IMG/VR virus record: IMGVR_UViG_3300024348_000017
Location: 1 to 64,000 of that record
Length of the DNA stretch: 64,000 nucleotides
From: a virus
Direction: 5' to 3' (one strand)
Under the pieces are notes generated by a model. It was given only the letters and a program-made list of their open reading frames with translations. It was not told where the DNA came from and searched no databases. The first letter of the stretch is position 1. Every line of letters begins with the position of its first letter. Below, in pieces: positions 3,678 to 57,755 of this stretch. A program made the position numbers and the translations under genes.

Positions 3678-6600
3678 TTAGCAAGTTACATAATTTTGAA
3701 TCATTCCATCACCACCAATTTCAACAGCGTAGGTACCTCCAGGTCCAGTTAATTTACGCCAACCTGGTAATGAACCACTAAATGCAGATGATAAACCTGA
3801 ATTGGTATATAAAAACATTTCAGCCATCGGTGTATTGTATCCAGGGGCTGCATATACAACACTTGTTGTAGTTGAACCAGCACAAGCACCACCAGAAGTA
3901 CCTGTAGCAAAGTTATCAATTTGATATTCTACGGGAGTGGCAGCATTAACAATTACCTGTATTAATGTTCTAGGAGAACTTTCAACCCCACTTAAATAAG
4001 TTGTAACATAGTAGTTTGTGGTACCTGTTATAGATGTACTTGGGGTATAAGGAGTCAAACTTGCCGAACCACCAGTAGATACTGTATACCATCTGAAACT
4101 ACTTCCAGATACAGAAGATGTTGCACTTAAAGGAACAGGAGTACCATATTGAGTATATGTAACTGGTGTTACTACTGTAGGTGCAGATGGTGGAGATACC
4201 GCTGGTGCTGATCCGGATATTGCATTTACTTTAATCAAGTAATCATTATTAGTTCCTGTAAAGTTATATTGCAACCAACTAGCACTTCCTGTTTCTACAC
4301 TAGAAGAAGCATATACTGATGATCCATTAATCCAAATAGACATTGTATTTGAAGTATAAGGATAATTACCAACCCATCCTGGATCTGATGGTGGATATAA
4401 TGGAGATGCAGCAGCATATGATGAACCACTATGTAATTGAATATAACGATATCCTGTAGTATATATTCCAGCTGCTGTTCCAGTTCCTTCATTTATAATT
4501 AAATTTGTACCGGCACCCATTGATTCATCTACAATTAATGTAGCATTTAGGTTTTGACAAGCTGGATCTGAGTATCTATATTCTCTAGCTCTAACTGCTT
4601 TAGTTGTTGTTCCAGTACAACCGTTAGCGTCTGCTACTGTTATATTCCAACTTCCACCTGCTAATCCACTATTTAAAACAATAGTACCTGGATTAGTAGT
4701 AGGACCTACTGATCTAGTAGTTCCTCCATTTACAGCTACAAATGTATAAGGACCAGTTCCACCAGTTGCTGTTACAACTAAACTACTATCACATTGATTA
4801 TATGTAATAGAAGCACTTACTGCAGTTATACCTGGTGTTGAAGTAATAGCTACACTTCCCGAAGATGTACATCCTGTACCGGCATCCGTTACAGTTAAAG
4901 TATAAGTCCCGGCACTACCAGTAACTATATTACCTGTAGCTCCTGTATTCCATAAATAACTAAATCCATTTCCACTACCACCACTTACGGATGCTGAAAC
5001 TTGTCCATTACTCGCACCACATGAAGAATTAGTTGATGTTAAGTTTATAGATATTGAACTTACACTACTAATTGTAGCACTACCTGTAGCAGTACAACCA
5101 TTAGTATCGGTTACAGTAACATTATAAGTTCCAGCAGGTAAACCTGTTGGATCTTCTACTGTTCTTACTACTGTAGACCCAGTAACCCAAGAATATGTGA
5201 ATGGAGAAATACCTCCAGCTACGGTAATATTAATAGCACCAACTTCTTGACCTGGTTCAGGACAATCAGCTACAGTTGAATTAATTGTTACTGTGAATGG
5301 AGATGGTTGAGTAATAGTAACTAGAGATGAAGTACTACATAAGTTATCTTTTACAGTTACTGTATAAGTAGCTGGTGTTAAGCTTGAGAATAAAGTATTT
5401 GAAGCAAATCCTGACCATGTACTACCACCATTGATAGATGCAGAATAAGGAGCTCCATAAGTTGAAGAGCCAGTAACTGCAATTTTTCCATTCCCACTAC
5501 CATAACAAGTTACATTAATAGGATTTGTAGTTACAGTAATTATATCTGCTGTTACAGTAAATGAAGAAGAAACAATTGTTCCTTCACTATCTTTAATATA
5601 TAATATATTATTACCAATAGGAGCTGTTGTGGATGCTGTTGGTTGATACCACTCACAGTTAGCTAAATTACTATATGTACTACCTCCAATTGAATATTGG
5701 TAAGGAGGAATACCATAATTTATTGAAAAAGTTACAGGTGAAACACCTCCAGCACAAACAACTGACTGGTTGGACTGAGACATTGCAAGAGGTAACTTAT
5801 AAAGTTCTAAATTAATACTAGCGGTATTACTTTTTAAACAAGTATTATCATTAACTGTATAATATAATTTGTAATTTCCTGGTGTTATACCTAAAGTTTC
5901 ACATTCATTTATAAAAAGAGAACCTGTAATTAAGGTAATATTAGGAAAACTATATCCTGTATAAGGATATGTTACTATTGAACCAGTAACGATAGCTGTA
6001 GAACTACAACTATCAATATAGTCATTAGCTAAAACATTTAATTTTTTAACACGCTGTACGTTTAATACACTAAAGTAATCGTTTATAGCGTTTGGAGGAG
6101 TAGGTAGAAAACATTTATAATTAGGATTAGTAATAACAACTACACCTTGAGAATAAAATATATTTCCTACATGAACTTTATTCTGTAACTCAGCTATATA
6201 TCCTGGAGGGGCATAATAACCTGGTTCTACATAATAACCTGTAAATGATATATCGTATACGTTTCCAAACCCATCATCTGCTAATTGATAACTACCACTT
6301 GCGGTTAAAATAAAGTTATTAGGTTTGATTTGTTCACCATAAATGTTTTGGTTGAACGACATTACTCTAATAATATCATTAGATGCAGTTGGAAAATTAT
6401 TTATAAATTCAGGATTCTCATTAAAATCAAAATAAGAACTAGTTGAAATAGTACTCGATTCTGTCATATAAGATTCATAATACATAGAATCTAATAATGA
6501 ATGAGAATTAAGAATACTTGAAGAATGATATTGGTAATATAAATGATTTACTTGGCGATAAACTAAAGACTCATATTGAGTCTCTGTTATTGGTCCATTA

Positions 6601-6755
6601 ATTAAATCAATACTACCAGTTAAATTTTTTCCTTTTAATATAGTAAAATACGCACCATCCTGAGGAACACAAGCGAAATCAAGGTTCCAATTTTTATTTG
6701 CTGTATAAGGAACAACAAATACGTCTGATGTACTCAGTTTTTTGAATGATGCCAT
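3678..6755 (-). CDS. tail-associated protein with Big_9-like, SprB-repeat and Ig_7 (CHU-type) adhesin modules
   Basis: PPNAIND..LNVLAND (cadherin-like); several GG..P(F/Y)TY.W...AGTY.VTVTD.NGC SprB repeats; FRWYTVSTGG...TPST..GTTNYYV...ES..R Ig-like unit. Confidence 0.8.
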   Translation of the reverse strand: MASFKKLSTSDVFVVPYTANKNWNLDFACVPQDGAYFTILKGKNLTGSIDLINGPITETQYESLVYRQVNHLYYQYHSSSILNSHSLLDSMYYESYMTESSTISTSSYFDFNENPEFINNFPTASNDIIRVMSFNQNIYGEQIKPNNFILTASGSYQLADDGFGNVYDISFTGYYVEPGYYAPPGYIAELQNKVHVGNIFYSQGVVVITNPNYKCFLPTPPNAINDYFSVLNVQRVKKLNVLANDYIDSCSSTAIVTGSIVTYPYTGYSFPNITLITGSLFINECETLGITPGNYKLYYTVNDNTCLKSNTASINLELYKLPLAMSQSNQSVVCAGGVSPVTFSINYGIPPYQYSIGGSTYSNLANCEWYQPTASTTAPIGNNILYIKDSEGTIVSSSFTVTADIITVTTNPINVTCYGSGNGKIAVTGSSTYGAPYSASINGGSTWSGFASNTLFSSLTPATYTVTVKDNLCSTSSLVTITQPSPFTVTINSTVADCPEPGQEVGAINITVAGGISPFTYSWVTGSTVVRTVEDPTGLPAGTYNVTVTDTNGCTATGSATISSVSSISINLTSTNSSCGASNGQVSASVSGGSGNGFSYLWNTGATGNIVTGSAGTYTLTVTDAGTGCTSSGSVAITSTPGITAVSASITYNQCDSSLVVTATGGTGPYTFVAVNGGTTRSVGPTTNPGTIVLNSGLAGGSWNITVADANGCTGTTTKAVRAREYRYSDPACQNLNATLIVDESMGAGTNLIINEGTGTAAGIYTTGYRYIQLHSGSSYAAASPLYPPSDPGWVGNYPYTSNTMSIWINGSSVYASSSVETGSASWLQYNFTGTNNDYLIKVNAISGSAPAVSPPSAPTVVTPVTYTQYGTPVPLSATSSVSGSSFRWYTVSTGGSASLTPYTPSTSITGTTNYYVTTYLSGVESSPRTLIQVIVNAATPVEYQIDNFATGTSGGACAGSTTTSVVYAAPGYNTPMAEMFLYTNSGLSSAFSGSLPGWRKLTGPGGTYAVEIGGDGMIQNYVTC

Positions 6756-54216: not shown

Positions 54217-54244
54217 AAAAGAAAGCAACCATTTCTGGTTGCTT
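54217..54244 (-). terminator. intrinsic terminator closing the RNA island
   Basis: AAGCAACCA-GAAA-TGGTTGCTT-TCTTTT. Confidence 0.75.
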
Positions 54245-54297
54245 CGTAAAAGGCCCACTCTGAGCGCCCTGATCGCGGGAAGGGGAATGGACTCTTG

Positions 54298-54668
54298 TGG
54301 AGATGACGAGAGTCGAACTCGTGTCTCAATAATGAACAATAATACCAACGTCTCACACGCTTAGCTCACTGATTAACCCCAGTGCATGAGGTATAGGGCC
54401 ACAAGTTTTTGGTCTTAGTGACATCCACCACCTAGTTTTAATCTAAACTAAGAAAATCTAGCTTGTAACTTCTGTTCCTAGGATGTTACACCCGACGCTA
54501 TTTAAGCCGCTAATGCGTACTCGTTCGCACCTACGAAAGACATCATATCTTCGAAGGTCATAGTAGATAATTCTACAGTTATTGTTTCGCAAGGTTTTAA
54601 GGACTTATCTTACTTTGTCCGCGTGTGGTACTACCTTCAGATTACTGATCAAATACCGGTACATCCCC
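54298..54668 (-). ncRNA. ssrA: tmRNA
   Basis: 5' GGGGATG pairs with 3' CATCTCC-A (G3:U70 alanine identity); T-arm ACGAG-TTCGACT-CTCGT; tag ORF 54576-54502 after AATAACT encodes VELSTMTFEDMMSFVGANEYALAA*. Confidence 0.93.
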
Positions 54669-55092: not shown

Positions 55093-55178
55093 TGCCTCAG
55101 GCGAGAATCGAACTCGCACTCGCGTTGCGGCGAACAGGATTTTAAGTCCTGCGTGTCTACCAATTTCACCACCAAGGC
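55093..55178 (-). tRNA. tRNA-Leu(UAA)
   Basis: CAGGA-CTTAAAA-TCCTG anticodon arm, long variable arm, GTTCGATT T-loop. Confidence 0.92.
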
Positions 55179-55238
55179 ATGAGACCCGATATCCGCGTTT
55201 TCATCTCACTCGGGTCATGATGAGCTTCCGACGGTTTG

Positions 55239-55394
55239 CTGTAGGGGCTGGAATCGAACCAGCACGCTGCAATTCAATATAAGACAATTAAGCCGGCTTT
55301 GTGGTCAACCCATATCTTACATCTATCTCTTATCAGCACCCACGAGACGAGTGGGCACGTCTACCTTGACTGCCGTCATTTCCGCCACCCTACA
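55239..55394 (-). ncRNA. 156-nt tRNA-like RNA (GUC in the anticodon position) with expanded D-loop and ~75-nt variable arm
   Basis: Acceptor TGTAGGG/CCCTACA; T-arm GCTGG-TTCGATT-CCAGC; anticodon arm CCCAC-TCGTCTC-GTGGG. Confidence 0.75.
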
Positions 55395-55397
55395 GTA

Positions 55398-55664
55398 TTA
55401 AACCCATCTATTACCATTTCGGCGTTTAGCTTCTTCAGCTTCTTTAACTCCTTTAACCATTTTAATCCAGGTTAAAGATACGTCAACAGGAGCTAATACC
55501 CAAGCCATAACTAAAACCATTATAGCATCCATTTCTGGGGAGGTTCCGAAATCAATTCCTCTTGTTTTATATTTTTTATTTAACTGATAGAAACAGTAAA
55601 TAATACAAATAATGTAATAACCTAATAACATATAACTATTTTTTAAAGTATTTTTCAAGTGCAT
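55398..55664 (-). CDS. small membrane protein inside the RNA island
   Basis: Two hydrophobic segments; true start probably MLLGYY. Confidence 0.5.
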   Translation of the reverse strand: MHLKNTLKNSYMLLGYYIICIIYCFYQLNKKYKTRGIDFGTSPEMDAIMVLVMAWVLAPVDVSLTWIKMVKGVKEAEEAKRRNGNRWV

Positions 55665-57155: not shown

Positions 57156-57755
57156 TTATAATATTCCAAGTGCTTTCATATTCTCTATTTGATCTTCTGA
57201 AAGCTGAAAATCGGGTTCCGCTACATTGTATTTGTTGGTTGTAAAGCTTTCAATCTTATCTACCTGTTCGGGAGTAAACACATCGCCTATAAGTAAATAA
57301 TAACAATTATAACATAACAATTCTAAATTATCCAAACGATAATTACGTTTGTTATTATCTTTAAAGTTAAGTAATAATGGTATTTTATAGTCAGTTACTC
57401 TACGCTCGCAGAATCCACAATTACTGCAATCCTCAGCTATTTTATTTTCATAAATTAGTCTATTTTTAATCTTTTCAGGATTAAAGTGAGAAGGATCCAT
57501 TGAACCATTTAATATCTGCTCTAAAGCAGGCTCTTTCTTCTTACCAACTAAATGTTTAGGAATGCCCTTACCAGATTGGTTTAAGTGGGTATCAAATAAT
57601 GTTTTACTCGTTTCGTCATCTGTATAGAGCTTAGCATATGCCTTATAATGAGTATAAGAGCAATTTAAGTAACGAGCAGCTGCTCTATTACTACGAGTAT
57701 GTCTCATAGCCCTTAAGACATCGTCTTTCGAAAACGGTTTTGGTTTCATTCCCAT
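57156..57755 (-). CDS. HTH + degenerate HNH-like Zn-finger protein
   Basis: SNRAAARYLNCS; CSNCG...N...NY..DNLELLCYNCY (the usual His positions are substituted). Confidence 0.6.
   Translation of the reverse strand: MGMKPKPFSKDDVLRAMRHTRSNRAAARYLNCSYTHYKAYAKLYTDDETSKTLFDTHLNQSGKGIPKHLVGKKKEPALEQILNGSMDPSHFNPEKIKNRLIYENKIAEDCSNCGFCERRVTDYKIPLLLNFKDNNKRNYRLDNLELLCYNCYYLLIGDVFTPEQVDKIESFTTNKYNVAEPDFQLSEDQIENMKALGIL

Follow-up and report, generated by a model that had tools for sequence, protein, structure and literature searches.

The window, a stretch of 64,000 nucleotides that forms positions 1 to 64,000 of the IMG/VR virus record IMGVR_UViG_3300024348_000017, belongs to a 90.9-kb record estimated to be 53% complete. 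Inside a phage tRNA cluster, on the minus strand, it carries a 156-nt gene for a tRNA-like RNA (55394-55239), to which we refer below as the giant RNA. RNA position p corresponds to window coordinate 55395-p, position 1 being 55394 and position 156 being 55239. A covariance model of the family described below (R1) matches the element with 150.5 bits (E 1e-39) and finds it as a single copy across the 90.9-kb record. The parts of the element are the following:

55239-55394 (-): whole tRNA-like RNA gene, 156 nt, matched by R1
55388-55394 (-): 5' strand of the acceptor stem, UGUAGGG, with its partner at 55240-55246; 7/7 pairs formed in 89/89 family members
55357-55385 (-): D arm of the tRNA-Leu type, RNA positions 10-38, with G18-G19 at 55364-55365; the D stem covaries
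55367-55378 (-): hairpin UGAC-GGCA-GUCA inserted in the D-loop; an insert is present in 89/89 members
55339-55355 (-): anticodon-like arm, a 5-bp stem and the loop UCGUCUC, with GUC at 55346-55348; the stem covaries
55266-55337 (-): giant variable arm, 72 nt, RNA positions 58-129; 4 stacked, covarying helices
55301-55311 (-): small hairpin at the arm tip, GGG-UUGA-CC(A)C, with invariant GAC; near-invariant sequence
55290-55299 (-): self-complementary tip AAGCCGGCUU, a perfect 10-nt palindrome; palindromy is kept across members
55247-55263 (-): T arm GCUGG-UUCGAUU-CCAGC; changes on both sides at 4/5 pairs, canonical T-loop
55238-55246 (-): 3' strand of the acceptor (CCCUACA), G73 (55239) and an encoded C74 (55238); G73 in 88/89 members

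The element has the full cloverleaf of a tRNA, with a 7-bp acceptor, a D arm bearing G18-G19, an anticodon arm of 5 bp and 7 nt and an arm with a UUCRANY T-loop, and with U8 and G9 between the acceptor stem and the short D stem. In the family alignment all four tRNA arms are present and covary, and once the long arm is deleted the family covariance model aligns ordinary tRNAs to the element. An initial sequence-only reading of the locus had described a perfect 7-bp acceptor with a canonical T arm, a hairpin inserted in the D-loop, and an anticodon loop with C33 and a pyrimidine at position 37, all of which we find. The D-loop hairpin lies just before G18-G19 and is in the window a true 4-bp hairpin (-3.7 kcal/mol) that is not palindromic, and the window loop UCGUCUC has C at position 33 and U at position 37. 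The same reading put the self-pairing variable arm at about 75 nt; the pairing and the GCUG/CAGC base hold, and the length is 72 nt. The arm, which includes a helix of 10-11 bp, starts from a base of 4 bp, continues through a second, short helix and a conserved internal loop (GAUA opposite GAA in the window, NAUA opposite GAA family-wide), and ends, beyond a long helix, in a three-way tip. Two features had been missed, the U1-A72 pair and the self-complementarity of the arm tip.

Programs that search for known RNAs pass over this element. ARAGORN reports 5 tRNAs and a tmRNA around it and, as had been anticipated, makes no call on the element itself; it also skips the element in all 60 related loci scanned. 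No Rfam family is found over 55100-55500, neither at the gathering threshold nor at E<=10, and the tRNA model RF00005 is without a match there. In one of the related phages ARAGORN reports a tRNA with a two-base anticodon (tRNA-???, 'aa'; L025:1417-1491) in the cluster. Folded as a single sequence, the element is only modestly better than its shuffles (z = -2.67), and the case therefore rests on comparison with relatives.

Relatives were collected in three ways. An exact search with the last 27 nt of the element retrieved 4 relatives from IMG/VR, in whose alignment paired changes were already visible; a search with the invariant 19-mer of the arm tip gave 55 loci; and a pattern of the D arm and anticodon stem gave 62 further loci, 57 of them above 100 bits with R1, a model built from 47 distinct sequences. 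Four loci (L169, L171, L191 and L193) were rejected as chance matches of the D-arm pattern. The resulting family has about 115 loci, nearly all in uncultured phages, a number that includes the window, one contig of a metagenome-assembled genome (MAG; L078) and one metagenome contig (L232). In a blastn comparison of three family members with 50,697 GenBank phage records, no homologue and hence no cultured carrier was found. The tip 19-mer has 111 matches in the genomes of 185,579 species, 110 of which are coincidences inside protein-coding genes, and the remaining one is a 518-nt phage-like contig in a MAG. A metagenome scan for longer-armed copies gave 6 matches, all in phage-type tRNA-array contigs, of which 1 is a family member and 0 are bacterial. 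Our literature search found no published description of the RNA family. Fremin and Bhatt 2023 (PMC10690425) give a candidate, DNAVirus_1850, that occurs 27 times in IMG/VR and overlaps one ARAGORN tRNA-Asp call; it might be the same family as the giant tRNA-like RNA.

The proposed structure is strongly supported by the pattern of substitutions among 89 distinct full-length sequences (alignment A4). Standard pairs fill 98.3% of the pair cells of this alignment, as opposed to 84.0% after shuffling and 41-47% when the partners are slid by 1-3 columns. At 27 of the 42 pairs both sides have changed. For covariation A4 scores 0.424, a value reached by 0/500 shuffles, against 0.154 in shuffled alignments. 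Although the fitting of A4 to the model works in favour of the structure, an independent MAFFT alignment agrees: RNAalifold recovers from it the cloverleaf and the four-helix arm, with 25/42 pairs changing on both sides. Among the individual changes, D-stem pair 11-24 goes from U-A to C-G in 6 members, anticodon-stem pair 30-40 has changed on both sides in 40 members, and the variable-arm helices (4-7) contain 12 pairs with changes on both sides. Two G-U pairs fix the strand, one being U-G in 89/89 members and the other G-U in 60/89, since these pairs are valid on this strand only. Apart from the segments that all tRNAs share, no conserved stretch of sequence is longer than one within the arm. 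The earlier proposal that the stems are under selection rather than in decay had been made subject to compensatory changes in homologues, and these are present in abundance. Together with the single copy in each of 22 phage genomes tested, this comparative evidence argues that the element is a real, strongly conserved and selected RNA on a tRNA scaffold, as had been proposed.

Each of the 22 carrier records that the loci led to holds exactly one copy by R1 (22/22). Eleven of these records are complete genomes of 167-321 kb, every one of which encodes a T4-type major capsid protein (Pfam Gp23, E 1e-62 to 1e-78), and several of the records have terminal repeats. The gene has tRNA genes for neighbours in every case, in many of them with tRNA-Ser(UGA) immediately ahead and tRNA-Leu(UAA) behind, and a phage tmRNA gene is near it at 26/60 loci and in the window. 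Canonical tRNA-Asp genes (loop CUGUCAC, G1-C72) occur in the same cluster at 8/60 loci scanned, and tRNA-Asn genes at 4/60. With ordinary tRNA-Asp genes co-resident, the giant RNA is therefore an extra and not the tRNA-Asp of the phage. A class IIb synthetase, GatB and a CCA-adding enzyme are encoded in 0/22 carrier genomes (11 complete), so that any such step must use host enzymes, and asparagine synthase is encoded in 2/22 only. The 90.9-kb record itself likewise contains no class IIb synthetase, GatB, CCA-adding enzyme, asparagine synthase or AsnC-type domain. In a scan for consensus promoters, sites were no more numerous than expected by chance.

Several further features of the surrounding sequence were recorded. 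The 60-nt spacer between the giant RNA and tRNA-Leu (55179-55238, minus strand) contains a GACCCGA...UCGGGUC hairpin, and this spacer recurs downstream of the RNA in two other loci (L030 and L052); elsewhere a conserved CUGAACACAGUG stands in its place, directly after the RNA 3' end, and both may be processing signals or further small RNAs. The phage tmRNA of the window (54297-54668, minus strand; Rfam 71.6 bits) has the tag ANEYALAA and is followed by a terminator-like hairpin (54222-54245), and many tmRNAs of related loci have long tags ending in ...FVGADYALAA. Beside the cluster lies an HNH endonuclease ORF (57156-57755, minus strand; PHROG matches E 3e-10), an arrangement that recalls the homing endonuclease segB inside the T4 tRNA cluster. 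A 1025-aa, tail-like protein (3678-6755, minus strand) has a CHU_C-associated Ig-like domain and an SprB repeat. As such domains are typical of Bacteroidota surface proteins, this hints at a Bacteroidota host, in conflict with the DNA ligase, which is nearest to phages of Alphaproteobacteria.

Which positions are free to vary, and which are not, is informative about function. Counted over the 89 distinct sequences, U1-A72 is invariant (89/89), as are G34, U35 and C36 (89/89 each), and nearly so are G2-C71 (85/89), U3-A70 (85/89), G73 (88/89) and G10 (88/89), while acceptor pairs 4-7 covary freely and the other stems also vary freely. A C follows G73 in 89/89, the full CCA being encoded in only 3/89. 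Position 33 is C in 76 members, A in 8 and U in 5; position 37 is U in 81, C in 5 and A in 3; and position 38 is C in 78, A in 10 and U in 1. The loop thus departs from the rule for decoding tRNAs, position 33 being other than U in 84/89 and position 37 a pyrimidine in 86/89. Removal of the arm, by which splicing had been imagined to yield a normal tRNA, would still leave C33, U37 and the D-loop hairpin.

The invariance at pairs 1-3, at position 73 and in the anticodon is what recognition by a synthetase would produce. Of the functions suggested in the sequence-only reading (a nuclease decoy, a ligand of the ribosome or of a synthetase, a carrier for display of the long arm), it favours a synthetase ligand, and one of the aspartate type over one of the serine type, because GUC is invariant and seryl-tRNA synthetase (SerRS) does not read anticodons. 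The strong determinants of aspartyl-tRNA synthetase (AspRS) are G73, G34, U35, C36 and C38, with G2-C71 a minor one (PMC9976931), and the strong set is present in the family as sequence marks (G73 in 88/89, G34-U35-C36 in 89/89, C38 in 78/89). The pair U1-A72 is a determinant for acceptance of Asp-tRNA(Asn) by the amidotransferase, with G1-C72 and U20a as antideterminants (PMC9976931); U1-A72 is present in 89/89, and the D-loop is too remodelled for U20a to be scored. Bacterial tRNA-Asp strictly conserves G1-C72, which is described as crucial for AspRS (PMC9976931), and measured against that type the family has G2-C71 in 85/89 but U-A at pair 1-72 in every member. Nor is the body of the Asp type, the D-arm sequence being almost identical to that of the tRNA-Leu(UAA) 60 nt downstream.

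A second line of evidence comes from self-complementary sites. At the arm tip, 1-3 nt after the small hairpin GGG-U(U/A)GA-CC(A)C, 87/89 members have a perfect palindrome of at least 8 nt. It exists in 16 versions, among which 8 central tetramers occur. When the tip palindromes are folded by themselves, the hairpin form is worth about 0 kcal/mol and the self-duplex -11 to -20 kcal/mol. Nothing about a hairpin requires its loop to be self-complementary, an outcome with a chance of 1 in 16 per independent origin. Because palindromy is kept through many sequence changes, the arm tip points to pairing between two copies of the RNA. Two near-palindromes are completed by G-U pairs, which fits selection acting on RNA and not on DNA. 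The neighbouring small hairpin is itself highly conserved: U(U/A)GACCAC is found in 88/89 members and GAC in 89/89, and those members that have a fourth, extra 5' G all have an extra 3' C opposite. The D-loop insert, present in all members in 61 distinct sequences, is a perfect palindrome of at least 8 nt in 54/89 (27 versions), many without a stable fold of their own. Tip and D-loop palindromes are complementary to each other in 0/53 members, which, these being related sequences, is weak evidence. Two other readings of the arm were tried and rejected: a hammerhead at CUGAUAAG in the arm base, the core of which is not conserved among members, and a coding or tmRNA-like tip, in which one-base indels between members break every frame and the AUG is not conserved.

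Taking these observations together, the explanation we favour, to which we give a probability of about 0.35, is that the giant RNA is a host-charged, non-decoding, dimerising carrier RNA of the aspartate type. It would be encoded as a single-copy gene of uncultured T4-type phages for a tRNA-derived RNA with a class II body of the tRNA-Leu type. The RNA would be cut out of the transcript of the tRNA/tmRNA cluster as a tRNA would be, and its 3' CCA would be completed by the host. Host aspartyl-tRNA synthetase would then recognise G73, G2-C71, G10, G34-U35-C36 and C38 and charge the RNA. As positions 33 and 37 break the decoding rules and the 72-nt arm protrudes, the RNA would work off the ribosome, either carrying an amino acid or serving as the ligand of a synthetase. 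Its palindromic arm tip would pair with that of a second copy, and in many relatives the palindromic D-loop insert would provide another such contact. One may speculate on a concrete version, in which GatCAB reads U1-A72 and converts aspartate to asparagine on the carrier.

Several findings speak against parts of this carrier model. Charging by AspRS is put in question by U1-A72, found here where bacterial tRNA-Asp keeps G1-C72, and by the replacement of C38 by A or U in 11/89 members. In addition, a class II synthetase approaches its tRNA from the side of the variable loop, where the 72-nt arm could clash with AspRS. With asparagine synthase in 2/22 and GatB in 0/22 genomes, the phages provide no genomic link between the RNA and asparagine metabolism, and the D-loop insert of the window's own RNA is not palindromic.

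GUC may be invariant for another reason, namely that it pairs with the GAC of the arm tip, itself just as invariant. On this basis the giant RNA may be an uncharged, self-assembling structural RNA, in which the GUC loop pairs with the arm-tip GAC, within or between molecules, and the palindromes join copies into a defined dimer or a larger complex that works through its shape, for example by binding a protein of phage or host. The two triplets are complementary, invariant (89/89 each) and both in loops, the same pairing logic is seen in T4 rnaC (UGAC tip loop and CGUCAA loop), and each molecule has up to two self-complementary sites, which are not complementary to one another in any of the 53 members that could be compared. 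Pairing alone, however, predicts covariation to other complementary triplets, which GUC and GAC never show, and the flanking bases (position 37 and the base 5' of GAC) are without consistent covariation. It also leaves the invariant U1-A72, G2-C71 and G73 unexplained. We regard such an assembly as possible, at odds of about one to four.

It is less likely again that the RNA is a decoy or sponge, a mimic of tRNA-Asp that soaks up a host factor binding or attacking tRNA-Asp, be it the anticodon nuclease of some defence system or an enzyme of tRNA modification, for instance, and thereby spares the real tRNA-Asp during infection. Large phages do carry tRNAs that counter tRNA-targeting defences, and this phage-borne RNA sits in a tRNA cluster and keeps both the GUC anticodon and the tRNA elbow. 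A decoy, however, should copy the loop of its target, and the loop UCGUCUC of most members differs from the CUGUCAC of true tRNA-Asp at positions 32, 33 and 37; a decoy would have no reason for a conserved arm, a palindrome or U1-A72 either.

That the giant RNA is an unusual working decoder, a tRNA-Asp that reads GAU/GAC and perhaps has a special role in phage translation, seems to us improbable. The cloverleaf, T-loop and G18-G19 are intact and the 7-nt loop has GUC in place, and 5 members have U33 and 3 have A37. However, 84/89 have C or A at position 33, and 86/89 have a pyrimidine at 37; normal tRNA-Asp genes are found in the same clusters; no known decoding tRNA comes anywhere near having such a 72-nt arm and D-loop insert; and both ARAGORN and RF00005 reject the element. 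Charging by seryl-tRNA synthetase, suggested in the sequence-only reading on the grounds of the long arm and G73, is more doubtful still. It would suit the class II body with its long arm at the variable position, G73 and G2-C71, but U1-A72 and U3-A70 differ from the bacterial serine set (G1-C72, A3-U70), and an enzyme that does not read the anticodon leaves the invariant GUC unexplained. The lack of a call by tRNA finders would agree with a pseudogene, with a tRNA gene that an insertion has disrupted or with an element that acts as DNA, for instance an attachment site. All of these are refuted by compensatory change at 27/42 pairs, and the G-U pairs valid on one strand only, the one copy in each of 22 genomes and an arm holding the longest conserved run not common to tRNAs leave such readings with next to no probability.

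Only a few tRNA-like RNAs with non-decoding jobs are recognised (tmRNA, viral tRNA-like structures and Y-RNA-like RNAs), and each has been instructive. The present family is large, strongly selected and single-copy in T4-type phage genomes of 167-321 kb. To our knowledge, no RNA has been seen before that unites the identity marks of a single amino acid system with a disabled decoding loop and with sites whose self-complementarity is preserved as they evolve. If the giant RNA is charged, it would be a natural example of phage aminoacyl-tRNA chemistry off the ribosome, and if it assembles, a compact natural module for RNA dimerisation on a tRNA scaffold.

Among known RNAs, the closest in body is the class II tRNA-Leu (RF00005), with which the giant RNA shares the cloverleaf, 7-bp acceptor, T-loop, G18-G19, 3-bp D stem and an arm at the variable position. 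It differs in that the arm has 72 nt rather than about 15-20, is branched and has conserved sequence, and that a hairpin lies inside the D-loop. Its anticodon is GUC with C33 and U37, its discriminator is G73 where tRNA-Leu has A73, and RF00005 does not report it. In its marks the RNA resembles the tRNA-Asp and tRNA-Asn of the AspRS/GatCAB pathway (the transamidosome pathway of Thermus, Deinococcus and Bdellovibrio), having the Asp marks together with the U1-A72 of the tRNA-Asn type. Unlike these, it has a class II body, a combination of GUC with U1-A72 that is found in no canonical tRNA and a rule-breaking loop, and AspRS and GatCAB are not encoded by the carrier phages.

Like the tRNA-like domain of tmRNA, the giant RNA has an acceptor and a T arm that frame a large insert foreign to tRNAs. 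In contrast to tmRNA, it keeps a full D stem and anticodon arm and has no G3-U70 alanine mark, pair 3-70 being U-A, no pseudoknots and no conserved frame, one-base indels separating the members. The Rfam tmRNA model RF00023 has no match at the element, while it matches the true tmRNA 570 nt away. As regards self-complementarity, dimerisation signals of the HIV-1 DIS type can be likened to the arm tip, being short, GC-rich, A-flanked palindromes in which palindromy is kept while the sequence drifts. The loops by which phi29 pRNA oligomerises are complementary to each other and not palindromic. What sets the giant RNA apart from both is that its self-complementary site is carried on a tRNA scaffold.

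A second family of tRNA-like RNAs was seen in the same phages. Its members have an AGUCAGG acceptor, a Leu-type D arm and the T arm ACAGG-UUCGAAU-CCUGU, with bodies of 93-145 nt and no recognisable anticodon arm, and no copy lies in the window. Its loci are:

L213:1311-1403
L173:4534-4678
L173:4977-5099
L187:14131-14228
L217:5808-5915
L201:4500-4609

In addition, a 112-nt relative (L185:593-704) has the same type of D arm, a D-loop insert containing GCCUAGGC, a variable arm of 19 nt and the 8-nt loop GCAUAGUA in place of the GUC loop, and may be an intermediate form or a different tRNA-like RNA.

A further comparison is with phage T4, the record of which has two stable RNAs in its tRNA cluster, rnaC and rnaD, rnaC (species 1 RNA; 139 nt, L056:1409-1547) being annotated only as 'small, stable RNA'. 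Over the T4 tRNA region, R1 has no match to rnaC or rnaD at E<=10, and we therefore do not file the giant RNA as a homologue of rnaC; the parallels are of architecture and loop motif only. The fold of rnaC combines an acceptor-like helix and a canonical T arm with two further arms, the first of them 70 nt long. In three homologues with 79-100% identity (L056, L236 and L237), the second stem changes at 8/10 pairs while its loop CGUCAA is fixed, and the loop UGAC at the tip of the long arm is likewise fixed; the two loops are complementary over 4 nt (GUCA/UGAC). Both RNAs lie in the tRNA cluster of a T4-type phage, and both have an acceptor-like helix next to a canonical T arm, one very long arm with a GAC loop at its tip, and a covarying arm capped by a conserved CGUC loop. 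In the giant RNA, CGUC is in the anticodon-like loop and UGAC at the arm tip. Unlike the giant RNA, rnaC has its long arm at the D position, two U-U mismatches in the acceptor and no G18-G19 D-loop, and no palindromic tip was seen in it.

With these short motifs in mind, it may be that in both RNAs the GAC loop and the GUC loop dock with each other, or that both present GUC to the same reader. A bolder proposal, which we think unlikely as a whole, is that T4-type phages have a new class of RNA, charged by AspRS, unusable by the ribosome and paired through its tip as an off-ribosome carrier, on which aspartate would become asparagine or be donated elsewhere, with rnaC as a reduced relative that follows the same GUC/GAC logic. 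In position and in its matching GUC and GAC loops, rnaC is an analogue of the giant RNA, and these shared motifs and the shared genomic position may offer a handle on rnaC itself.
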